A program made the position numbers and the translations under genes. A stretch of DNA of 31,005 nt from a virus (Duplodnaviria; Heunggongvirae; Uroviricota; Caudoviricetes): the IMG/VR virus record IMGVR_UViG_2671180986_000015; one strand, given 5' to 3'. Positions 3,111 to 26,376 of the stretch are shown here, piece by piece; the stretch's first letter is position 1, and every line of letters starts with the position of its first letter. The notes under the pieces are model-generated. The model was not told the origin of the DNA. It ran no database searches and saw only the letters and a program-made list of their open reading frames with translations.

Positions 3111-3151
3111 NNNNNNNNNNNNNNNNNNNNNNNNNNNNNNNNNNNNNNNNN
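3111..3151. other. N-masked run (41 nt) in the A-B intergenic region
   Basis: Literal n characters. Confidence 1.
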
Positions 3152-3178: not shown

Positions 3179-4162
3179 ATGACTGATATTGATGATGTTT
3201 TCAACACTATTAACGCTTTGATTAACGAGGGCGACAAGTCTCAGGAAGATANNNNNNNNNNNNNNNNNNNNNNNNNNNAAGATATTGCTGATGAAGCCGG
3301 AATGTCTCCGGCAACACTCTCGGCTCTGCGTAAAGGAGAGTACAACGGTAATGTCGAAGGTATGCATGACAAATTACAGAAATGGTATCAGGTCTGGCAG
3401 AAGGGACAGAACTTGTCAGGTACCCCTGGTGTTGTGAAGACCCAGACATTTTGTGATTTGCATGAGCTGTTTAAAACAGTGCGCTCACTCGGGATTATCA
3501 GTGTCGTTGTTGGCGTACCGGGTGTCGGAAAAACCTTTGCTGCCCGGGAATATTGTCGCAGGACAGCTAATGCCTGGATGGTGACTCTTGCTCCGGCACA
3601 TTCGAGCGTAACGGAATGCCTCCTTGAAATAGCATATGCGCTGGAAATTAATAATCCGGGAAGAAATAAGGGGAATATAACCCGCGCCATTCGCAGAAAA
3701 CTGGGTGGTGGTAAAGAAACCAGTGGCCGTGTTAACCCCCTTCTGATTATTGATGAAGCTGATCACTTAAGTGTGGATGGTCTGGAGCAATTACGCGCCA
3801 TTCAGGATGCCACTGGCGTGGGGATGGTTTTAATTGGCAACCCGAAACAGATGGCGGATGCCACCCGTCGTGGGACTGATGAACTGGCCCGTCTGTTCAG
3901 CCGTTTTGCCATGACAAAACAACTGCGCAAAGTAAAAAAGACCGATGTGATGGCTGTAGCCAAAGCATGGGGAGTAACACAGGAAGATGAGCTGGACCTG
4001 CTGATGAGGGTAGCCGAAAAGCCCGGGGGATTGCGTGTATTAACTCACACACTGAATCATGCGTGGCTGGCGGCAAAAGGTGCAGGCACATCCCTGAATA
4101 AAAGTCACATTAAAGCGGCTTTTAAGGAGGCTTACAGCAACCCCAGGTTACTGAACTGGTAG
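3179..4162 (+). CDS. B: MuB-like AAA+ ATPase (transposition target DNA activator)
   Basis: Walker A GVPGVGKT and Walker B LLIIDEADHL; GAGG RBS before ATG 3179; directly downstream of the transposase. Interrupted by a 27-nt N-run (3252-3278). Confidence 0.85.
   Translation: MTDIDDVFNTINALINEGDKSQEDXXXXXXXXXXDIADEAGMSPATLSALRKGEYNGNVEGMHDKLQKWYQVWQKGQNLSGTPGVVKTQTFCDLHELFKTVRSLGIISVVVGVPGVGKTFAAREYCRRTANAWMVTLAPAHSSVTECLLEIAYALEINNPGRNKGNITRAIRRKLGGGKETSGRVNPLLIIDEADHLSVDGLEQLRAIQDATGVGMVLIGNPKQMADATRRGTDELARLFSRFAMTKQLRKVKKTDVMAVAKAWGVTQEDELDLLMRVAEKPGGLRVLTHTLNHAWLAAKGAGTSLNKSHIKAAFKEAYSNPRLLNW
3252..3278. other. N-masked run (27 nt) inside B
   Basis: Literal n characters. Confidence 1.
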
Positions 4163-7650: not shown

Positions 7651-7855
7651 TGGTATCAGTGATTAGCTGTGATATTTGCAGGATGGGATTATTCGTTGTT
7701 CTCAATGCCGGAGCCTCTGCCGCTCCGCTTGCTGCGGCTTCGAGGATCGTTTTGCCTTCTTCTGCGGTAATTAGCCCCTTTCTGACAAGGAGTATCAGCA
7801 ACCTTGAGGCAATGACATACCCTGCAACATCATAAGGCTGTTCACTGTTTTTCAT
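7589..7855 (-). CDS. Hypothetical minus-strand small protein (88 aa), convergent with and overlapping the 3-prime end of 7336..7650
   Basis: Reverse-strand ATG at 7855-7853 preceded by AGAGGA with a 7-nt spacer. Product MKNSEQPYDVAGYVIASRLLILLVRKGLITAEEGKTILEAAASG... Codon usage is mediocre and a competing + strand ORF (7650..7835) exists, so the call is tentative. Confidence 0.35.
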   Translation of the reverse strand: MKNSEQPYDVAGYVIASRLLILLVRKGLITAEEGKTILEAAASGAAEAPALRTTNNPILQISQLITDTISLLDQDSDEYQKPQPSEHP

Positions 7856-7928
7856 AAAAAGTTTCCTCTGTTTAGTGAGTGGATTCTGGCGGTGTTGCCG
7901 CACCGCCCCCTTTTCTGGAGGTACGATA

Positions 7929-8480
7929 ATGAATCGCACATCCCTGATTAAATTAATTCATGTCGCCCGTCGTGATCTACAACTCGACGATGACACTTAC
8001 CGCGCCTTTCTGGTGCAGCACACGGGCAAAACCAGTTGCCGCGAGCTGTCCGTTGCACAACTGGAACGTGTGCTCGATGCCATGAAAGAGCGCGGTTTTA
8101 AGAAGCAGAAAAAACATCCCCGCCGTCGCTTTAAGGGGCATGTCACACCGCGCGAGAAGATTTATAAAATCTGGCAGCAGATGTTCCTTGATGGTTTCGT
8201 CTCCGATATCAGCGACGCTGCGCTGGACAAATACGTTGAACGCCTGACGGCCAGACGTAATGGCGGTCAGGGTGTTTCCACGCTGGCCTGGTGTCACGGG
8301 GAATCGTTGCATGTTGTGCTCGAAACGCTCAAACAGTGGCATATGCGCTGCATCCGGGAAGCCTTTGCCCGACATGGTGTGCCTTTACCTGTGAGCGAAA
8401 CCGGGCGGAAGCTGCGCGGCTATGATGCACTGACCAGTGCATATGCCCGCGCACGAAACAGCGGGAGAATTGCTGTATGA
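7929..8480 (+). CDS. gemA: GemA-like protein (Mu gp16 family)
   Basis: ATG 7929 with GGAGG 7 nt upstream (MNRTSLIKLIHVARRDLQLDDDTYRAF...); N-terminal motif and position immediately upstream of mor match Mu gemA as I recall it. Confidence 0.65.
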   Translation: MNRTSLIKLIHVARRDLQLDDDTYRAFLVQHTGKTSCRELSVAQLERVLDAMKERGFKKQKKHPRRRFKGHVTPREKIYKIWQQMFLDGFVSDISDAALDKYVERLTARRNGGQGVSTLAWCHGESLHVVLETLKQWHMRCIREAFARHGVPLPVSETGRKLRGYDALTSAYARARNSGRIAV

Positions 8481-8926
8481 AACAGATGAAAGAGCAGGAT
8501 TTATTCGAAGACTTCCGGGACGACAGCGTTCTGGAATACCTTAACGATTACCAGGAAAACACGGCTTATCCGGCGTTACTTTCTGAACTGAACGCACTGC
8601 TGCGTAAAGAGCTGGCCCGGATTGGCGCAGACCCTGCCCATTCCCTTGAGCTGGTTGTGGCGATTTGTCGCTATATCGGCGGGATGCAGGTTTATGTTCC
8701 GAGGGGGAATATTCTGGAGAATCTTGTCCGGGATATGCGTATCTGGCGTGATTTTAACGGCCATAATATTCCTGAACTGGTTCAGCGTTACGGGGTGACG
8801 TATAAAACCGTCTACAAGGCCATCAAGCGGATGCGGCGTCTGGAGTGTAATAAATACCAGCCGGATTTGTTTTACCACTCCCCGAACCTGCCTCACCCCG
8901 TTCGTCGTCCGCCACGACGTCCTTAA
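8477..8926 (+). CDS. mor: Mor/C-family transcription activator
   Basis: Start overlaps the gemA stop (ATGA). Contains PALLSELNALLRKELARIGADPAHSLELVVAICRYIGGMQVYVPRG and the C-terminal HTH YGVTYKTVYKAIKRMRR, characteristic of Mu Mor as I recall it. Confidence 0.88.
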   Translation: MKQMKEQDLFEDFRDDSVLEYLNDYQENTAYPALLSELNALLRKELARIGADPAHSLELVVAICRYIGGMQVYVPRGNILENLVRDMRIWRDFNGHNIPELVQRYGVTYKTVYKAIKRMRRLECNKYQPDLFYHSPNLPHPVRRPPRRP

Positions 8927-8933
8927 TCAATGA

Positions 8934-8956
8934 AGCCGGTAAATCCGGCTTTTTTT
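8934..8956 (+). terminator. Intrinsic terminator after mor
   Basis: Hairpin AGCCGG-TAAAT-CCGGCT immediately followed by a T7 run, starting 8 nt after the mor stop. Confidence 0.6.
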
Positions 8957-9011
8957 ATGCCTCCGGCACCATGAAGCAGACCACGTTTAAATCTGCTTCA
9001 CAGGTGCTTTT

Positions 9012-9599
9012 ATGGAAAATCAAAAATTCTCCCCGGCCTTTGAGTATGCGCTGAATTTTATTCTGCGTCCCGATATCGAAGGCGTCTATGTCAATGACCC
9101 CACTGACCGTGGCGGCGAAACCAGATACGGCATTTCTGACCGCCGCGACGGTGTGATTGACGGCAAAACCGATGTCAGCGGCGACGGTAAACCGGATACC
9201 CGCATCAGGGATTTAACCCGCGAACAGGTCGCGCAGATTTACTGGCGCGATTACTGGCTGCCTGCCGGATGTGACCAGTGGCCTGATGGCGTGGCGATGT
9301 TTGTGTTCGATGCGGCGGTTCAGCATGGCGTTAAAAAAGCTATCAGGATTTTGCAGGAAGCCGCTGATGTGGATGCTGACGGCATCATCGGTCCGCGTAC
9401 CCGTAAGGCAGTGAGCCTGTCCACCCCGGACTGGTTGCTGACCCGCTGCATTGTCCGTCGTTCCCGCTTTTATGCCGACATCATCAAATCCAAACCTGCC
9501 CAGGGCAAATACCTGAACGGCTGGTTTAACCGCATGGAGAAAGTGACCGACGCCTGTCTGGAAATTATCGACAACGTGTCGTCCGTCACGCGGGGATGA
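9012..9599 (+). CDS. Putative endolysin, GH108-like muramidase with peptidoglycan-binding domain
   Basis: N-terminal motif VYVNDPTDRGGETRYGI typical of GH108-family lysozymes; no N-terminal transmembrane or signal segment; first gene of the lysis/late block; AGGTG RBS. Confidence 0.75.
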   Translation: MENQKFSPAFEYALNFILRPDIEGVYVNDPTDRGGETRYGISDRRDGVIDGKTDVSGDGKPDTRIRDLTREQVAQIYWRDYWLPAGCDQWPDGVAMFVFDAAVQHGVKKAIRILQEAADVDADGIIGPRTRKAVSLSTPDWLLTRCIVRRSRFYADIIKSKPAQGKYLNGWFNRMEKVTDACLEIIDNVSSVTRG

Positions 9600-9671
9600 T
9601 ATGGCAAAGGCTGGGATGCCTCGCTGAGAGCCGGGCGGCGTGACCGCCTGCGTCAGGAGGTTTTACATCGT

Positions 9672-9827
9672 ATGGCCGGAGGTCCGCCCCCGAAACCGCT
9701 GGACTATACCGGTCATGACGGCACACACGCCAGCCACTACATGCGTGGCTGGAACACCGTGGATACACGGGACATTTTCTGGCAGTGCCAGAAGTACAAG
9801 GAAAAACTCAATGCACAGAATGAATAG
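9672..9827 (+). CDS. Candidate small ORF (51 aa) in the lysin frame downstream of the lysin TGA
   Basis: ATG 9672 preceded by AGGAGG (9655-9660, 11-nt spacer); good codon usage; ends at TAG 9825-9827 overlapping the start of the next gene. See findings for alternatives. Confidence 0.3.
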   Translation: MAGGPPPKPLDYTGHDGTHASHYMRGWNTVDTRDIFWQCQKYKEKLNAQNE

Positions 9828-10221
9828 TCTTTTTGTTCGCGTTATTTACTCCCGCTTTATGTTGTGCCAGTGGTCGTTTCTGGGGCTGTCGGCAGTCCTT
9901 TTTCTGGCGAGCTGTTTTGCCGGATGGCAGGCGTTTGCGGTCATGGTGCTGGCATACGGCGCGACACTCTGCCTGATTCACAGTTTCCAGCTGGGCAACG
10001 TACCTTATCGCCTGCAACCCAAAAGGCGTTTCCGGGCCGCCTCCCTTCGAATTGTCGTGTGGTCATGGGTGGTCTGGGTCGTTGGTTTTTTCATGCTGAC
10101 ATTCGGCCTTCTTTATCTGAAGGAGCCTTATCAGCTGGCGTTCTGGCTGGGCGGTATCTTTTGTGCGGCACTTTATAAACATCAGCGCCGTTTTCATAAG
10201 GGGGATTCATGGACCCGTTAA
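9811..10221 (+). CDS. Membrane protein with 3-4 predicted transmembrane segments, lysis-module member (holin candidate)
   Basis: ATG 9811 (or 9820) with AAGGA upstream; hydrophobic stretches FLGLSAVLFLASCFAGWQAFAVMVLAYGATLCLI, IVVWSWVVWVVGFFMLTFGLLYL, LAFWLGGIFCAALY. The longer GTG-9640 version in the ORF track was rejected on codon usage. Confidence 0.5.
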   Translation: MHRMNSLFVRVIYSRFMLCQWSFLGLSAVLFLASCFAGWQAFAVMVLAYGATLCLIHSFQLGNVPYRLQPKRRFRAASLRIVVWSWVVWVVGFFMLTFGLLYLKEPYQLAFWLGGIFCAALYKHQRRFHKGDSWTR

Positions 10222-10817
10222 CCCTTTCAGGCATCGCCTCCGTTCTGCTGAAAGCCGGGCCGGGGCTGATTCGTTCCGTCGGGCGCTGGTTTGGTGGCAG
10301 CACATCTGCCGCCGCTGACTCGGTGGCCGGTATGGTGGAAAGCGTCCGGGAAAGCCTGCCGGTGGCTGAACAGCAACGCATTCTGGAACAAAAACTGGTG
10401 ATGCTGTCACCGGAGCAACTGGTGCAGCTGGAAACCCTGAAAGTCCAGCTGCAACAGCTGGAGGTGGAGCGGCAGAAGCTGGTGCTGGCTGACCAGCAGG
10501 CCGCTCACCACGAACAACAGGAAACCATCCGCAACGGTGACAACGCCACGGACAGCTATGTGCGCCAGACGCGCCCGTTGCTGGCCCGTCTGTCCTGTTA
10601 CAGCAGTCTGGCCTATGTGCTGTTGCTCTCCTGTGGCCAGATTGCCGGTGCGGTTGCCGGTGCGAACGGTATCACGCTGCATATGCCGTCACCGGACTGG
10701 GATATCACGCTGATGTTGTTTACCCCGGCGCTGGGCTATCTCGGGGTAAGAACCCTTGACGGCTTTGCCCGTTACAGCAAATCGAGCTGTCACAAAATAT
10801 CAGCGGGGCCGAAATGA
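10209..10817 (+). CDS. Coiled-coil protein with C-terminal transmembrane segments (holin-like or lysis-associated)
   Basis: ATG 10209 overlapping the previous gene end; central heptad-like Q/L-rich region (LVQLETLKVQLQQLEVERQKLVLADQQ) followed by hydrophobic segments LAYVLLLSCGQIAGAVAG and ITLMLFTPALGYLGV. Confidence 0.5.
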   Translation: MDPLTLSGIASVLLKAGPGLIRSVGRWFGGSTSAAADSVAGMVESVRESLPVAEQQRILEQKLVMLSPEQLVQLETLKVQLQQLEVERQKLVLADQQAAHHEQQETIRNGDNATDSYVRQTRPLLARLSCYSSLAYVLLLSCGQIAGAVAGANGITLHMPSPDWDITLMLFTPALGYLGVRTLDGFARYSKSSCHKISAGPK

Positions 10818-11041
10818 CCGATGAAACCGACCGCATCAGTGAAGTGGTTTTAAACGAACGTCAGGACGTCGTTAACGCCTGGCTGATGCGGATAAAAGAA
10901 GCACCCCACAGTCGGGGCTTCTGCAATGACTGCGGTAACGTTATTCCGGCACAGCGCATTGCGGTGCTGCCGGATGTGGTGACCTGTATTGACTGCCAGC
11001 AGGCGCGGGAACGCAGGAGGAAGACGTGTCCTGGGAAGTGA
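10814..11041 (+). CDS. TraR/DksA-family C4 zinc-finger protein
   Basis: 75 aa with CNDCGNVIPAQRIAVLPDVVTCIDCQ (CxxC-17-CxxC), the TraR/DksA-type zinc finger pattern; start overlaps the previous stop (ATGA). Confidence 0.75.
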   Translation: MTDETDRISEVVLNERQDVVNAWLMRIKEAPHSRGFCNDCGNVIPAQRIAVLPDVVTCIDCQQARERRRKTCPGK

Positions 11042-11331
11042 TCCGGGCCAACTGGCCTGTTTTATGGGCGCTGTTGATGACAGCAATAAACCTGATTCAG
11101 CTGATTCTGGCGAAGACTTACGTCAAACGCGAAGAGTTTGATTCGCTGCGTTCCCGCGTGTCGGTGATGGAAGGCCTGGTGAATCAGTTACCCGACCGCA
11201 ATGAATTTCACCGCCTGCAACTGGATATCAGCAACCTGCGGGGTGAAATCAAAGAGCTGGGGCCATCCATCCGCCAGGTATCCCGCATCAGCGATTTGTT
11301 ATTAGAGAACGAATTAAAGGAAAAAAATTAA
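11026..11331 (+). CDS. N-terminally membrane-anchored coiled-coil protein (i-spanin-like topology)
   Basis: GTG 11026 with AGGAGG 5 nt upstream; N-terminal hydrophobic segment WPVLWALLMTAINLIQLIL followed by a charged helical region. Confidence 0.55.
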   Translation: MSWEVIRANWPVLWALLMTAINLIQLILAKTYVKREEFDSLRSRVSVMEGLVNQLPDRNEFHRLQLDISNLRGEIKELGPSIRQVSRISDLLLENELKEKN

Positions 11332-11624
11332 TGGCGATGAAAGAGATCCTCACTGAAGACCGTCGTCTGGTGTTGCTGCGTTCCCTGCTGGACTGTGGCG
11401 ACAGCGCGAATGAATCCGTGTTGCAGACCTGCCTTCAGGCCTACGGTCATAAGGTATCCCGTGATGTGGTGCGCACCCAGCTTGCATGGCTGCGCGAGCA
11501 GGGGCTGGTTCGTCTGTCTGATGTGGGCGGCTGTTACGTGGCTGAAATCACCGGCAGCGGCGAGGATGTGGCAAACGGCCTGTCCGGTGTGCCGGGCGTT
11601 AAAAAACCCCGTGCGAGGGACTGA
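11331..11624 (+). CDS. Hypothetical protein at the Mu gp26 position, possible winged-helix DNA binding
   Basis: ATG 11331 overlapping the previous stop; 97 aa; lies directly upstream of the terminase region. Confidence 0.55.
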   Translation: MAMKEILTEDRRLVLLRSLLDCGDSANESVLQTCLQAYGHKVSRDVVRTQLAWLREQGLVRLSDVGGCYVAEITGSGEDVANGLSGVPGVKKPRARD

Positions 11625-11887: not shown

Positions 11888-12798
11888 NNNNNNNNNNNNN
11901 NNNNNNNNNNNNNNNNNNNNNNNNNNNNNNNNNNNNNNNNNNNNNNNNNNNNNNNNNNNNNNNNNNNNNNNNNNNNNNNNNNNNNNNNNNNNNNNNNNNN
12001 NNNNNNNNNNNNNNNNNNNNNNNNNNNNNNNNNNNNNNNNNNNNNNNNNNNNNNNNNNNNNNNNNNNNNNNNNNNNNNNNNNNNNNNNNNNNNNNNNNNN
12101 NNNNNNNNNNNNNNNNNNNNNNNNNNNNNNNNNNNNNNNNNNNNNNNNNNNNNNNNNNNNNNNNNNNNNNNNNNNNNNNNNNNNNNNNNNNNNNNNNNNN
12201 NNNNNNNNNNNNNNNNNNNNNNNNNNNNNNNNNNNNNNNNNNNNNNNNNNNNNNNNNNNNNNNNNNNNNNNNNNNNNNNNNNNNNNNNNNNNNNNNNNNN
12301 NNNNNNNNNNNNNNNNNNNNNNNNNNNNNNNNNNNNNNNNNNNNNNNNNNNNNNNNNNNNNNNNNNNNNNNNNNNNNNNNNNNNNNNNNNNNNNNNNNNN
12401 NNNNNNNNNNNNNNNNNNNNNNNNNNNNNNNNNNNNNNNNNNNNNNNNNNNNNNNNNNNNNNNNNNNNNNNNNNNNNNNNNNNNNNNNNNNNNNNNNNNN
12501 NNNNNNNNNNNNNNNNNNNNNNNNNNNNNNNNNNNNNNNNNNNNNNNNNNNNNNNNNNNNNNNNNNNNNNNNNNNNNNNNNNNNNNNNNNNNNNNNNNNN
12601 NNNNNNNNNNNNNNNNNNNNNNNNNNNNNNNNNNNNNNNNNNNNNNNNNNNNNNNNNNNNNNNNNNNNNNNNNNNNNNNNNNNNNNNNNNNNNNNNNNNN
12701 NNNNNNNNNNNNNNNNNNNNNNNNNNNNNNNNNNNNNNNNNNNNNNNNNNNNNNNNNNNNNNNNNNNNNNNNNNNNNNNNNNNNNNNNNNNNNNNNNN
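11888..12798. other. N-masked run (911 nt)
   Basis: Literal n characters; hides the end of the gp27-like gene and the start of the large terminase. Confidence 1.
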
Positions 12799-14043: not shown

Positions 14044-14159
14044 NNNNNNNNNNNNNNNNNNNNNNNNNNNNNNNNNNNNNNNNNNNNNNNNNNNNNNNNN
14101 NNNNNNNNNNNNNNNNNNNNNNNNNNNNNNNNNNNNNNNNNNNNNNNNNNNNNNNNNNN
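14044..14159. other. N-masked run (116 nt)
   Basis: Literal n characters. Confidence 1.
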
Positions 14160-14234: not shown

Positions 14235-15845
14235 GTGNNNNNNNNNNNNNNNNNNNNNNNNNNNNNNNNNNNNNNNNNNNNNNNNNNNNNNNNNNNNNNN
14301 NNNNNNNNNNNNNNNNNNNNNNNNNNNNNNNNNNNNNNNNNNNNNNNNNNNNNNNNNNNNNNNNNNNNNNNNNNNNNNNNNNNNNNNNNNNNNNNNNNNN
14401 NNNNNNNNNNNNNNNNNNNNNNNNNNNNNNNNNNNNNNNNNNNNNNNNNNNNNNNNNNNNNNNNNNNNNNNNNNNNNNNNNNNNNNNNNNNNNNNNNNNN
14501 NNNNNNNNNNNNNNNNNNNNNNNNNNNNNNNNNNNNNNNNNNNNNNNNNNNNNNNNNNNNNNNNNNNNNNNNNNNNNNNNNNNNNNNNNNGGTGGCCGCC
14601 AGTGATGACGATGCCGACGTGCAGCTGGCGGACGCCATCCGTGCGCTGATGGAAGCCCCGCAAATCCCCGAACTGATGTTTGATTTGCTCGACGGGCTGG
14701 GAAAAGGCGTGGCGGTCTGTGAAATCCTGTGGGACACCCGCAACAACCACTGGATGCCCCGTGATTATGAGTGGGTTGATCCCCGTTTTCTGAAAGCCGA
14801 AAAGCCCACGCTGCGCCAGTTCCGCCTGCTGACGGACGATGAACCGGTGGATGGCGTACCGCTGACACCGGGAAAATTCATTGTTCACCAGCCGCGTCTG
14901 AAATCCGGTCTGCCGCTGCGTAACGGTCTGGCCCGTCTGGTGGCTGTGATGTACATGCTGAAATCCTTTACCGTGCGCGACTGGTGGGCATTTGCGGAAA
15001 AATTCGGCATTCCGGTTACGGTGGGGAAATACGGTCCCAACGCCACGGAGGAGCAAATCCGCGTGCTGATTGATGCGATTGCCTCCATTGCCTCGGATGC
15101 CGGGTGTGCCATTCCGCAGTCCATGCAACTGGAGATGCAGGAAACCGCCAGCCGGAATAACGGCGGCGCACTGTTCCGTGAAATGGCGGAATGGTGCGAT
15201 GCGCAAATCAGTAAGGCTGTGCTGGGGCAGACCATGACCACGGATAACGGCAGTTCGCGTTCACAGGCGGACGTGCACAATCAGGTGCGCATGGACATTG
15301 TGCGCTGGGACGCGCGACAGCTGGCTAACACGCTGAATGAATATCTGGTGCGGCCCTACATCGAGGCCAACTACGGGCCACAGGCGCACTACCCCCGTGT
15401 TGTTCTGCGTATCAGTGAAGCCGAAGATCTGAAGGCGCTGACGGATGCTCTGGTGCCGCTGATTGACCGGGGGATGCGGGTTCAGGAATCGGAGCTGCGG
15501 GACCGGTTCGGCCTGGCTGAGCCAGACGAAGGGGCTGATGTTCTGCATCCGGTTTCCGCCGGGATGCCGGGTGATATGGCGATGAACCGCGAGCGCGTCG
15601 CCCTGAACAGGGAACACCCCGACGAACTGGCACAGATGGTGGATGATGCCCTGCGTGACTGGCAGAAAACCGGCGAGGCGTTCACGAACCCGGTGCTGAC
15701 ACTGGCGCAGGAGTGCGACAGTTTTGATGACTTTCTGAAACGCCTGCCTGAGCTTCAGGAAACGCTGAACGCGGACGACTTTGCCCTGCAACTGGCGGAG
15801 GTGTGCTTTAAGGCGCGTGCGCTGGGAGACACTGCTCATGCGTGA
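14235..15845 (+). CDS. Portal protein (Mu gp29-like)
   Basis: GTG 14235 preceded by GAGGGAGG; long ORF whose visible part is 14591-15845; its stop overlaps the start of the F-like gene. The 5-prime end and frame are uncertain because of the masked run at 14238-14590. Confidence 0.75.
   Translation: MXXXXXXXXXXXXXXXXXXXXXXXXXXXXXXXXXXXXXXXXXXXXXXXXXXXXXXXXXXXXXXXXXXXXXXXXXXXXXXXXXXXXXXXXXXXXXXXXXXXXXXXXXXXXXXXXXXXXXXVAASDDDADVQLADAIRALMEAPQIPELMFDLLDGLGKGVAVCEILWDTRNNHWMPRDYEWVDPRFLKAEKPTLRQFRLLTDDEPVDGVPLTPGKFIVHQPRLKSGLPLRNGLARLVAVMYMLKSFTVRDWWAFAEKFGIPVTVGKYGPNATEEQIRVLIDAIASIASDAGCAIPQSMQLEMQETASRNNGGALFREMAEWCDAQISKAVLGQTMTTDNGSSRSQADVHNQVRMDIVRWDARQLANTLNEYLVRPYIEANYGPQAHYPRVVLRISEAEDLKALTDALVPLIDRGMRVQESELRDRFGLAEPDEGADVLHPVSAGMPGDMAMNRERVALNREHPDELAQMVDDALRDWQKTGEAFTNPVLTLAQECDSFDDFLKRLPELQETLNADDFALQLAEVCFKARALGDTAHA
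14238..14590. other. N-masked run (353 nt) inside the portal gene
   Basis: Literal n characters. Confidence 1.
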
Positions 15846-16206: not shown

Positions 16207-16450
16207 NNNNNNNNNNNNNNNNNNNNNNNNNNNNNNNNNNNNNNNNNNNNNNNNNNNNNNNNNNNNNNNNNNNNNNNNNNNNNNNNNNNNNNNNNNNNNN
16301 NNNNNNNNNNNNNNNNNNNNNNNNNNNNNNNNNNNNNNNNNNNNNNNNNNNNNNNNNNNNNNNNNNNNNNNNNNNNNNNNNNNNNNNNNNNNNNNNNNNN
16401 NNNNNNNNNNNNNNNNNNNNNNNNNNNNNNNNNNNNNNNNNNNNNNNNNN
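16207..16450. other. N-masked run (244 nt)
   Basis: Literal n characters. Confidence 1.
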
Positions 16451-16467
16451 ACCATTCACACCGAAGC

Positions 16468-16876
16468 NNNNNNNNNNNNNNNNNNNNNNNNNNNNNNNNN
16501 NNNNNNNNNNNNNNNNNNNNNNNNNNNNNNNNNNNNNNNNNNNNNNNNNNNNNNNNNNNNNNNNNNNNNNNNNNNNNNNNNNNNNNNNNNNNNNNNNNNN
16601 NNNNNNNNNNNNNNNNNNNNNNNNNNNNNNNNNNNNNNNNNNNNNNNNNNNNNNNNNNNNNNNNNNNNNNNNNNNNNNNNNNNNNNNNNNNNNNNNNNNN
16701 NNNNNNNNNNNNNNNNNNNNNNNNNNNNNNNNNNNNNNNNNNNNNNNNNNNNNNNNNNNNNNNNNNNNNNNNNNNNNNNNNNNNNNNNNNNNNNNNNNNN
16801 NNNNNNNNNNNNNNNNNNNNNNNNNNNNNNNNNNNNNNNNNNNNNNNNNNNNNNNNNNNNNNNNNNNNNNNNNNNN
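16468..16876. other. N-masked run (409 nt)
   Basis: Literal n characters; only a 17-nt island (16451-16467) separates it from the previous run. Confidence 1.
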
Positions 16877-16910
16877 TGACCGTCGGTAACCCCAGACGAC
16901 GGAGACTGAC

Positions 16911-17935
16911 ATGCAACCGGAACTGCTGGCGCTGTGTTTTTCCCTGCCAGAACCCATCCCTGAGCTGACACCCGCTCAACTGCCGGAATGGCTTGAACTC
17001 GTTCCTGCGGGTGAGTTCACCGGGCGCGATGGCCGGACGTGGATGAACCGCAATCCACATGAGGTGGTTGCCCGTTCGTCCGACATCAACATTCCGGTGG
17101 ACATTGAACATGCCACCGAAATTAAAGGCCCGCGGGGTGAAGAGGCTCCGGCGTATGGCTGGGTGGAAGCACTGCGGGTGACGGACAGCGGCACCATTGA
17201 AGGGCGTGTTGTCTGGAGTGAGTCCGCCCGGTGGATGCTGAGCGAGCGCCGCTACCGCTATTACAGCCCGGCGTTTTTCCATGACGCAGACGGTGCGGTG
17301 ACNNNNNNNNNNNNNNNNNNNNNNNNNNNNNNNNNNNNNNNNNNNNNNNNNNNNNNNNNNNNNNNNNNNNNNNNNNNNNNNNNNNNNNNNNNNNNNNNNN
17401 NNNNNNNNNNNNNNNNNNNNNNNNNNNNNNNNNNNNNNNNNNNNNNNNNNNNNNNNNNNNNNNNNNNNNNNNNNNNNNNNNNNNNNNNNNNNNNNNNNNN
17501 NNNNNNNNNNNNNNNNNNNNNNNNNNNNNNNNNNNNNNNNNNNNNNNNNNNNNNNNNNNNNNNNNNNNNNNNNNNNNNNNNNNNNNNNNNNNNNNNNNNN
17601 NNNNNNNNNNNNNNNNNNNNNNNNNNNNNNNNNNAGAAAAACGCCTTCAGCAACTGGAAGAGAAGGAAGCCGAGGCGCTTGTGGATGCGGCCATCGGGGC
17701 CGGAAAAGTCGCCCCGGCAAACCGTGACATGTTCCTTGCCACCTGCCGCACGGAAGAAGGCCGCAAACAGTTTGCGGAGTACACCAAAGGTGCACAGCCG
17801 CTGGTTAACAACGACAAGCCCAGCCAGGGCAAGGATAAACCCGCGCAGACACTGACCGATGCCGAACTGGCGATGTGTCGCAGCATGGGGATTACCGGGG
17901 AAGAGTTCCTCGCCGCTAAACCGAAACAGGAGTAA
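16911..17935 (+). CDS. Protease/scaffold protein, Mu I/Z-like
   Basis: ATG 16911 with GGAGA upstream. After the masked run the reading frame resumes (EKRLQQLEEKEAEALVDAAIGAGKV...) and ends at TAA 17933-17935, 7 nt before the major head gene. The frame relation across the gap is unknown. Confidence 0.7.
17303..17634. other. N-masked run (332 nt) inside the protease/scaffold gene
   Basis: Literal n characters. Confidence 1.
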
Positions 17936-18848: not shown

Positions 18849-18919
18849 CCCGTCATCCGTAAACCGCAGTTAAAAGGTGCTGTGAATGCCCTTTTAACTG
18901 CCTTTTAAAAGGCAGAGTC

Positions 18920-23222: not shown

Positions 23223-23322
23223 CCTGTCTTCGCGATTCAGCATTCAGTACCTGGAACAGCTGCCCCTGCGGCAGCTGTTCCGCCTGATAAAGCAACTGGA
23301 GAAACAGCATGGCAACAGGTAA
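23113..23322 (+). CDS. Overlapping +1 frame ORF, candidate frameshift extension of the tail assembly chaperone
   Basis: Open +1 frame overlapping the chaperone 3-prime end and ending 14 nt inside the tape measure gene; the GGG GGC GA context at 23172-23180 includes a rare CGA codon in the zero frame. Confidence 0.3.
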   Translation: MSLSARKRLCWMTCLRRWQRGGELMPLASALMNLLVNLSSRFSIQYLEQLPLRQLFRLIKQLEKQHGNR

Positions 23323-25102: not shown

Positions 25103-26376
25103 TGACAACGAGCAACGGTAAATGGGACTGGCTGCGCGACGCCTCGTTTCGTGGCGTCCCCTTCTTTCTGGTGGATACGGAGGGCACCGGTGGTCGTCGT
25201 GCCATTCCCCGTGCTTATCCCCGGCGTGAAACCGCCTGGACGGATGATAACGGGGCCGTTCCGGGGCAACAGCAGATTAACGCAAAGCTGCCAGGTAAAA
25301 ACTTCCGGGATGATTTAAACGCCCTTTTAGATGCGCTCAATACCCCCGGCCCCGGCGAGCTTGTCCACCCGTGGTTCGGGATACAGACCGTACAGGTTGG
25401 CAAGGTCACCCATCGCCTCAGCACGGAGGAAGACGGCATTGCGTATGTCACCTTTGAAGTGTTTGAGGCAGGCGAGCGCCTGTTCCCGTCTGCGGCGGAT
25501 AACACGCAGCAGGAAGTGCTGACAGGCATTGATGCGGTGAAAGCCGCCATTGACGATGGCGACTGGTTCGGCGCACTCGACGGGCTGGGTGACATGGCCG
25601 ACAGTTTTCTGGCCGATATGGAAAACCTTGTGGCTAACCTGCCCACGTTACCGGCAGCACTGAATCAGTGGATGGACAGGCTGAAGCATTTTAAGGCGAT
25701 GGCCGGAACTCTCATTGCCACACCGGGGCGTCTGGTCAGTGAGCTGTCAGCACGGGTGGAAGATATTGCGGGCCTTGTGACGGAACCACCCGAAGCACTG
25801 GCGGTTTACACGACATTACGCAACCAGTGGGCCGGAGAACGTGCCAGGCAGATTGCCACCGGCGCACTGCCGGAAGATATCACCGTGAAGCCCGGCAGCG
25901 TGGCAGACGGCAACCCCGGCTTTGCCATCGGGCTGTCACCGGATTATCAGCCGGTATCTGACAGCCTGCAAAAGAACATTGACGACTTCCGCCAGGTGGT
26001 TGTGCTGGGAGCCCTGCTGGGACAGGCCAGTGCCGTGGCCTCGATGACGTTCGATACCCGTGATGCGGCGTTATCTGCCGGTGACACGCTGGCGGCTGAA
26101 CTGCATGAGCAGGCGGTGGCGGCGGTGGAAAACAACCAGCGGACATTGTGGCGAACGCTGCGCGATTTACGGCAGGCCGTGATTACGGATGCCCGCGAGC
26201 GTGCCGCCCGTCTGCCGGAAACCCGGCAGGTGACGCTGACCACAACCACCTCTGCCGCATTGCTGGCATGGCGCGAGCATGGTGACACACGCCGACGGGA
26301 TGAAATCGTGCAGCGTAACCGCCTGCGTCATCCGTCATTCATCCTGCCGACGCAACCTGTGGAGATCACCGACTGA
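25102..26376 (+). CDS. DNA circularisation protein (Mu N-like)
   Basis: 424 aa; start overlaps the tape measure stop; position between tape measure and baseplate genes. Confidence 0.8.
   Translation: MTTSNGKWDWLRDASFRGVPFFLVDTEGTGGRRAIPRAYPRRETAWTDDNGAVPGQQQINAKLPGKNFRDDLNALLDALNTPGPGELVHPWFGIQTVQVGKVTHRLSTEEDGIAYVTFEVFEAGERLFPSAADNTQQEVLTGIDAVKAAIDDGDWFGALDGLGDMADSFLADMENLVANLPTLPAALNQWMDRLKHFKAMAGTLIATPGRLVSELSARVEDIAGLVTEPPEALAVYTTLRNQWAGERARQIATGALPEDITVKPGSVADGNPGFAIGLSPDYQPVSDSLQKNIDDFRQVVVLGALLGQASAVASMTFDTRDAALSAGDTLAAELHEQAVAAVENNQRTLWRTLRDLRQAVITDARERAARLPETRQVTLTTTTSAALLAWREHGDTRRRDEIVQRNRLRHPSFILPTQPVEITD

Follow-up and report, generated by a model that had tools for sequence, protein, structure and literature searches.

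A predicted Pm-type promoter with a covarying RNA helix precedes the late genes of a Mu-like Escherichia coli prophage without a C gene

The stretch of viral DNA analysed in this study (31,005 nucleotides, IMG/VR record IMGVR_UViG_2671180986_000015, hereafter the window) is a Mu-like prophage of Escherichia coli. Its genes are arranged in the order c, ner, A, B, ..., gam, gemA and mor, followed by those for lysis, packaging, head and tail, and the gemA-mor region is approximately 73% identical to Mu. Positions 7800-10300 show 99.9% identity to a prophage in E. coli FDAARGOS_943 and are matched in 77 of 5,426 complete E. coli genomes. Runs of N mask positions 3111-3151, 3252-3278, 11888-12798, 14044-14159, 14238-14590, 16207-16450, 16468-16876 and 17303-17634. 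The mor gene (8477-8926) encodes 149 amino acids and ends with TAA at 8924-8926. The next gene (9012-9599) encodes an endolysin with GH108 and PG_binding_3 domains (Pfam PF05838, 2e-23, and PF09374, 2e-17; PHROG 315, endolysin); direct reading of the sequence gives a Shine-Dalgarno (SD) element AGGTG at 9002-9006 and the start codon ATG at 9012-9014. From the mor stop at 8926 to the lysin ATG at 9012 there are 85 bp, as the first-pass annotation of this DNA had stated. Both genes and all elements given below for this spacer and for the cassette of gene I lie on the plus strand. Judged from the sequence, the endolysin gene is very probably the opening gene of a Mor-dependent operon. The gp18 homologue behind it (9601-9828) is frameshifted and reads ATGGCAAAGG as compared to ATGGGCAAAGG in the 99.9% identical prophage, one G fewer, which marks either a pseudogene or an error in sequencing.

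The early, middle and late cascade of Mu, in which Mor and then C are the activators, is the textbook model for transposable phages. In agreement with the first-pass annotation, a single Mor/C-family protein was found in the window when its six frames were searched by phmmer with the Mor and C proteins of Mu and the window protein as queries. This protein matches the Mor family profile PF08765 with 104.3 bits (cut-off 24.9) over residues 31-131, spanning the dimerisation, beta-linker and C-terminal helix-turn-helix (HTH) regions, and matches PHROG 532 with 8.5e-41. Its identity to Mu Mor is 62%, and to Mu C 33%. In the recognition helix, TVYKAIKRMRR stands against TVYKAIRRMRR in Mu Mor, a K/R change only, and against QIYQIIARQRK in Mu C. 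By sequence it is a Mor orthologue of the Mor subtype and not of the C subtype. The protein carries EQDLF at its N-terminus and QPDLF at its C-terminus, where YQPDLF is followed by a Pro/Arg-rich tail YHSPNLPHPVRRPPRRP (8860-8923). QPDLF is found in Mu C, whereas Mu Mor has QPSLL at that place, so that the window protein differs from Mu Mor by a C-like C-terminal motif and by the tail; QPDLF or QLDLF is present in most Mors of the C-less lineage described below. QPDLF has been reported as the C-terminal clamp-binding-motif consensus of the Mor/MuC family, and activation of the Mor/C type involves sigma-70 RNA polymerase plus the beta clamp (PMC12867686).

The spacer between mor and the lysin gene had been described as holding only an intrinsic terminator (8934-8956) and a 9-bp inverted repeat. 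The terminator-like hairpin is present, but it overlaps a Mor site of the Mu Pm type, a T-tract and a -10-like hexamer. The hairpin GAAGCCGG-TAAAT-CCGGCTTT (8932-8952) has an 8-bp stem with five G-C pairs and a 5-nt loop and runs directly into seven T residues (8950-8956), which are the features of an intrinsic (Rho-independent) terminator; the element 8932-8956 is thus predicted to be terminator-like, and the homologous element in the Mu record is annotated as the early-operon terminator within Pm. Positions 8926-8972 of the window align without gaps to Mu Pm, and the alignment covers the Mor site, the T7 run and the hexamer. The predicted Mor-binding site AATGA-AGCCGG-TAAAT (8929-8944; -51 to -36 of the putative promoter) shares 13 of 16 positions with the Mu site AGTAA-AGCCGG-TTAAT. 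As in Mu, two 5-bp inverted repeats flank the G/C hexamer spacer AGCCGG, and the 16-bp site overlaps the terminator hairpin of the early operon; the half-sites differ (AATGA/TAAAT versus AGTAA/TTAAT in Mu), and the symmetry of the repeats is 3/5 in the window versus 4/5 in Mu. In both phages the mor gene lies just upstream, after gemA, and the T-tract, here at -30 to -24, replaces a -35 hexamer. The -10-like hexamer CACCAT (8967-8972) is a weak match to TATAAT (three of six positions) and sits at an offset of +25 to +30 from the hairpin centre, the identical distance to that of TATCCT in Mu Pm; the centre of the Mor site is 30.5 bp upstream of it (-43.5 from +1). Among 56 unique cassette variants from relatives the position of the hexamer is fixed, with a consensus CAnnnT followed by G, and its A at position 2 and T at position 6 are conserved. 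Colinearity with Mu Pm places the putative +1 at 8980.

These assignments depend on the coordinates of Mu Pm, which were fixed from published footprint and KMnO4 data and then transferred to the window. The Mor site of Mu Pm was taken as defined in PMC4287176 and PMC4390567. The KMnO4-reactive T residues of the bottom strand at -12, -4, -1, +1, +3 and +4 (PMC4287176) fit A residues of the top strand only if +1 is Mu position 9224 (position 1725 of our Mu locus L001), and consequently TATCCT is the -10 hexamer and AGTAA-AGCCGG-TTAAT is the Mor site at -51 to -36. The mutated bases -57G and -54A (PMC4390567) agree with the same assignment. A Mor site centred on the terminator hairpin was rejected, as it would be off by 5.5 bp; the KMnO4 and footprint positions put the site on the left arm and loop. 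Across relatives, HTH residues vary with the left half-site, FN occurring with A(G/A)TAA and YK with AATGA, and this co-variation supports Mor as the reader of these boxes. A C box (TTAT-N5-6-ATAA / CCATAACCCC), which would be expected approximately 35-55 bp before a start, was not found in 8927-9011. At the level of sequence, the 85-bp spacer combines terminator and promoter in one cassette homologous to the Mu middle promoter Pm, with predicted Mor binding; it has the make-up that defines a Pm-type promoter and lacks that of a C-type late promoter.

A second cassette is present upstream of the head gene I (protease/scaffold). It contains an exact copy of the 25-nt core GAAGCCGGTAAATCCGGCTTTTTTT and a hexamer CATACT at the same offset, and is seen unmasked in the 99.9% identical prophage (locus L002, 28837-28921). 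In the window the N-run 16468-16876 hides its Mor box and T-tract, and for this reason the second cassette, which alters how the entire regulatory scheme is read, was not visible to the first-pass annotation; the visible tail (16877-16913) comprises the last base of the -10 hexamer, a hairpin CCGTCG/CGACGG, the SD and the ATG of gene I. A scan with a position weight matrix (PWM) found two Mor-type cassettes only, before the lysin gene and before gene I, and no further Mor-box promoter, in front of the tail or the com/mom genes, came up with the PWM or in a mismatch scan. A match to the Mor box with two mismatches at 25904-25922, inside gene N, was discarded for its wrong spacing to any -10 and its lack of a T-tract, and TAACCCCAGA before gene I was discarded as a C box, since its place within the hairpin loop, approximately 20 nt from the ATG, does not give the spacing of a C box. 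Gene N itself carries at 25904-25950 a string GGCAACCCCGGCTTT...GATTATCA resembling the Mu PP region GCCATAACCCCGG...TATCCT at a similar place in the gene, with other spacing; in a phage without a C gene this may be a relic or merely conserved coding sequence.

The first-pass annotation proposed a search for a C homolog beyond the window. None was found: besides mor, six-frame phmmer detected no Mor/C ORF in the window, and none in the remainder of the 99.9% identical E. coli prophage (locus L003), a part that encodes tail fibres, com and a mom-like gene. Likewise, no C gene was found in approximately 60 relatives whose sequence extends beyond its expected position. A Mor-box scan of viral contigs gave at least 120 stretches. 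Approximately 75 IMG/VR loci have the C-less layout GemA-Mor-cassette-GH108-gp18-TraR, approximately 13 the classical Mu layout cassette-gp18-gp19-C-lys and approximately nine an intermediate layout cassette-GH108-gp18-C-lys, e.g. Yersinia phage vB_YpM_5; as these loci were retrieved by the Mor-box motif itself, the counts do not give the frequency with which the box is absent. Many of the C-less loci carry a second cassette approximately 7.7 kb downstream, between F and I. The C-less layout is also found in a deposited phage genome, that of Klebsiella phage Kp4866-3. Ten enterobacterial genome loci were retrieved by Mor similarity alone and are free of the bias of Mor-box retrieval. All ten, from Pluralibacter, Raoultella, Klebsiella, Serratia, Kluyvera and Brenneria, have the C-less layout, and in all ten the cassette lies directly 5' of the lysin gene and 350-550 bp away from mor. 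Such gaps of 350-550 bp between mor and cassette are seen in loci L128-L137 and L006; the window has no insert. In E. coli 54214 a moron of low GC content (locus L004, 2585-3064) separates mor from the cassette and encodes a protein of 159 amino acids with a signal-peptide-like N-terminus, belonging to PHROG 38744, of which the function is not known. The cassette thus stays with the lysin gene while morons and gaps part it from mor, which indicates that it belongs to the lysin operon. An apparent MuC-like protein upstream of the cassette in 20 loci proved to be an artefact of blastx hit ordering; after non-redundant parsing these proteins were Mor orthologues.

With C gene and C-type Plys absent and Pm-type promoters in front of late genes, the cascade would run from early genes through Mor directly to late genes. 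Mor would bind 8929-8944, overlapping the left arm and loop of the terminator hairpin, and together with sigma-70 RNA polymerase would initiate RNA synthesis near 8980, with the weak CACCAT as -10 hexamer. Transcripts from this promoter would run on into the genes for lysin, holin-like protein, packaging and head, and the second cassette would restart transcription before gene I, at the place of the C-dependent PI of Mu. We consider it quite probable, on the grounds of sequence homology, that a Pm-type Mor promoter drives the late genes. Of the two possibilities raised in the first-pass annotation, direct control of late genes by Mor is therefore well supported, by the Pm homologue, its second copy, the Mor-like protein and the absence of C, including in dozens of relatives. 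The other, that a different factor takes the role of C, need not be invoked for lysis and head, where the Mor cassettes would suffice, and keeps its place only for tail and mom, where no Mor-type promoter was found. The tail genes and com/mom may be read from the gene-I promoter or by something else.

A distinctly unlikely variant of this second possibility is that Mor activates a middle operon only, and that a protein of this operon outside the Mor/C family is the true late activator. Candidates would be the TraR/DksA C4 zinc-finger protein (10814-11041; PF01258, 9.9e-11) and a gp26-like protein (11331-11624). The TraR/DksA gene lies inside the putative Mor-dependent operon and tracks the C-less layout, being present in nearly all C-less relatives and absent from Mu-type loci, and the lack of any detected Mor-type promoter for tail or mom genes would also fit. 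However, the head operon of gene I, which is C-dependent in Mu, has an exact Mor-box cassette, so lysis, packaging and head genes require no second activator, and no repeated candidate site was found besides the Mor box. To our knowledge, TraR/DksA proteins work via the secondary channel of RNA polymerase and not as promoter-specific DNA binders. The protein could modulate late transcription through that channel, although the data do not require it.

That a Mu-type phage lost C by deletion and left this prophage as a defective derivative, unable to express its late genes, is extremely unlikely. The frameshift of the gp18 homologue in the window and the IS elements flanking the near-identical prophage would be in line with such decay. 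Yet the C-less layout occurs with intact genes in the approximately 75 viral contigs, in six genera and in one deposited phage genome, and a simple deletion would have left C-type boxes at PI, where a Mor-type promoter is found.

The prophage differs from Mu in several respects. In Mu, the operon read from Pm comprises gp18-gp19-gp20-C and ends before Plys; in the window the predicted promoter has the endolysin gene and late genes immediately behind it, and PI is replaced by a second Pm-type copy. With the C-dependent promoters of Mu (Plys, PI, PP and Pmom) the prophage shares predicted activator-dependent promoters before the lysin gene and gene I, without a -35 hexamer and with a terminator in front; it differs by the absence of a C gene, by boxes of the Mor type and by the lack of any detected equivalent of PP or Pmom. 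The Yersinia Muvirus of the vB_YpM_5 type has the same Mor-cassette-GH108-gp18 module directly after mor but keeps C (99% identical to Mu C) and, further downstream, the SAR endolysin of Mu, and its GH108 gene is therefore a middle gene. From its gene order, this layout looks like an evolutionary intermediate between Mu and the C-less lineage. The vB_YpM_5 locus (L005, 4141-6069) thus carries two genes of endolysin type, a GH108 gene 72% identical to the window lysin and a SAR endolysin gene after C.

The other element named in the first-pass annotation, a perfect 9-bp inverted repeat (TGAAGCAGA, 8972-8980, and TCTGCTTCA, 8992-9000) with an 11-nt spacer, ending 11 nt before the ATG, was found exactly as described. 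It is the only such repeat in the window even if three mismatches are allowed (0.01 expected). The repeat (8972-9000) lies at approximately -8 to +21 of the putative promoter. An inverted repeat follows the G after the hexamer in all 56 unique cassette variants, each time at this place and with differing sequence; examples of the arms are GAAGCAGA/TCTGCTTC, GGAAG/CTTCC, GGGATT/AATCCC, AGAAGG/CCTTCT, TGAAAGTG/CACTTTCA and GTCCGTC/GACGGAC. An alignment of 21 representative leaders with MAFFT and RNAalifold gave no consensus structure, the variable arms being unaligned, and for this reason an arm-energy permutation test of cognate versus non-cognate arms was used instead. For this inner helix, cognate arms pair with -9.55 kcal/mol versus -5.19 kcal/mol for non-cognate arms in 19 families, a value reached by none of 20,000 permutations. 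A search of Rfam gave no match above any gathering score.

The first-pass annotation had offered two roles for this dyad. As an activator site it is not supported: the predicted activator site is the terminator region, and the dyad sequence is not conserved in relatives. More generally, it is very unlikely that the dyad is a DNA operator for a dimeric activator or repressor overlapping the transcription start. A perfect 9-bp repeat with half-sites 20 bp apart from centre to centre, i.e. on one face of the DNA helix, and covering -8 to +21, would suit such a protein. But at least 19 unrelated arm pairs replace the dyad in close relatives with conserved Mor box, Mor and neighbour genes, and the dyad occurs once in the prophage, the gene-I cassette having another stem. 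As the sequence varies while the pairing persists, an RNA structure is favoured over a protein operator, and the helix is under selection.

Folding of the RNA extends the helix. In both MFE and centroid structures of the window, an outer helix is formed by a 5' strand UCCGGCACC (8962-8970), upstream of the putative +1, and the positions 9003-9008 (GGUGCU, Shine-Dalgarno) and 9014-9016 (G of AUG plus GA); GGCACC pairs with GGUGCU, and UCC with the G of AUG and GA. This outer tier covaries as well (CGGCAC/GUGCCG, GGGCAC/GUGCCC, CCGGAA/UUCCGG, AUGCCUGC/GCAGGCAU), with -10.75 kcal/mol for cognate versus -8.77 kcal/mol for non-cognate strands in 24 families, again reached by 0 of 20,000 permutations. 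Mu Pm has a corresponding element, CCUGUGAUGA at -10 to -1, which pairs with UCAUCAUGGG over the AUG of gp18. As the 5' strands lie upstream of the putative +1, mRNA initiated by Mor would lack them, and the helix would form only on RNA that reads through the terminator.

The second role proposed, a hairpin in the 5' UTR controlling lysin translation, thus stands in part: a selected helix exists and pairs with SD and AUG, but its 5' arm lies upstream of the putative start. It is quite unlikely that the dyad is a true 5'-UTR hairpin of the Mor-dependent lysin mRNA, serving as a stabiliser or in translational control, with the start further upstream. The helix is strongly selected and adjoins the SD, and +1 is placed here by analogy with Mu. 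Against this, 56 of 56 variants, Mu included, keep the same spacing between Mor box and hexamer and between hexamer and helix, the mapped start of Mu lies 8 nt after the hexamer and puts the 5' arm at -10 to -1, and no alternative -10 was found 7 nt upstream of the helix.

Read-through RNA of the window folds with -22.8 kcal/mol (z = -4.06, matched by 0 of 200 shuffles), whereas promoter-initiated RNA folds with -5.7 kcal/mol (z = -0.48). The mean cost of opening the ribosome-binding site (RBS; -16 to +12) over the 56 variants is 15.9 kcal/mol on read-through RNA versus 8.1 on promoter-initiated RNA and 9.6 with the upstream segment shuffled, with p <= 0.05 in 44 of the 56 variants; for the window type it is 20.0 versus 7.6 kcal/mol, reached by none of 60 shuffles. 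Other measures respond less. The unpaired probability of the SD hexamer is no different in read-through RNA (0.37; window type 0.33) and in promoter-initiated RNA (0.33; window type 0.29), and the mean unpaired probability from SD to AUG differs modestly only (0.32 vs 0.48). The main gene-I cassette is no more costly to open on read-through RNA (11.0 vs 11.9), and its fold z-score of -0.74 is not significant.

Inhibition by fold-back of externally initiated transcripts is known from IS10/Tn10 and IS50, in which the RBS is sequestered by a helix whose 5' strand lies ahead of the start site of the element itself, so that only read-through RNA is silenced and mRNA from this start site can be translated. 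A similar arrangement may operate here. Early transcripts carrying mor would end at the hairpin and T-tract; in RNA leaking through, the 5' strands at 8962-8980, i.e. the core promoter, would pair with the lysin SD and AUG and with the bases just ahead of them in a helix of two or three tiers, with the 9-bp dyad as inner tier. Translation of such RNA would be weak, and Rho termination or decay would probably follow, while the leader of Mor-initiated mRNA would be open and translatable. Silencing of an operon through a block of its first gene needs polarity, which we assume. Based on the folding model, we give even odds that the helix serves to silence read-through transcripts by folding back. 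The arrangement proposed here differs from that of IS10 and IS50 in that it concerns an internal phage terminator-promoter junction instead of a transposon end; moreover, the 5' strand here is the core promoter itself (-18 to +1) and the helix is multi-tiered. A broader proposal, which we advance with slightly more doubt than confidence, is that Mor-type promoters including Mu Pm carry a built-in anti-RBS, their -18 to +1 segment being complementary to, and co-evolving with, the translation-initiation region of the first gene.

The helix on read-through RNA might instead be a processing or decay site for RNase III or, in types with a U-run behind it, a back-up terminator. Its 15-18 bp in two or three tiers with internal loops would suit RNase III, and UUUU follows the outer stem in the window type (GGUGCUUUUAUG) and in the L018 type. 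In most variants, however, no U-run follows the helix, and the outer tier consistently takes in SD or AUG, which points to translation. We consider this reading unlikely as the main role of the helix; it is compatible with fold-back silencing and does not exclude it. Taken as a whole, a two-step cascade through Pm-type cassettes combined with a fold-back helix is the explanation we favour, with some reserve.

If fold-back silencing applies, terminator-promoter junctions would be doubly insulated, with leaked transcripts silent and only activator-initiated mRNA read. A single activator, Mor, could then time lysis and head genes safely without the C step in the C-less lineage. Working as proposed, the covarying helix would insulate operon junctions by simple means; the heavily studied Mu Pm has such a helix too, apparently never noted there. 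We found no description in the literature of Mor-box promoters at late operons or of an anti-RBS helix embedded in a promoter. The prophage is a common one, and six other enterobacterial genera have the C-less layout, which indicates that a widespread sister lineage manages with Mor as sole activator and has Pm-type promoters at its late operons instead. Such a lineage provides a natural experiment on why Mu needs C. Single Mor/C genes are widely annotated in Mu-like phages, and caution is advised, since for a single Mor/C gene in a Mu-like prophage position alone is a poor basis for the label C or middle operon regulator.

Further inverted repeats were observed elsewhere in the prophage. Two adjacent strong hairpins (CAGTTAAAAGG/CCTTTTAACTG and CTGCCTTTT/AAAAGGCAG; 18867-18915) lie in the 71-bp gap 3' of the major capsid gene and are probably a stabiliser of the mRNA 3' end or an attenuator. 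At 23253-23281 a perfect 12-bp inverted repeat GGAACAGCTGCC/GGCAGCTGTTCC occupies an apparent gap after the tail-assembly chaperone gene; the equivalent place in Mu encodes a programmed frameshift extension. Past the end of the window, before com (locus L003, 7158-7185, minus strand of the locus), a perfect 11-bp palindrome GACGATCGATA-N6-TATCGATCGTC with four GATC sites is followed by a -10-like motif TATCCTG, without a Mor box, an arrangement which by analogy recalls the Dam/OxyR control of Mu mom.
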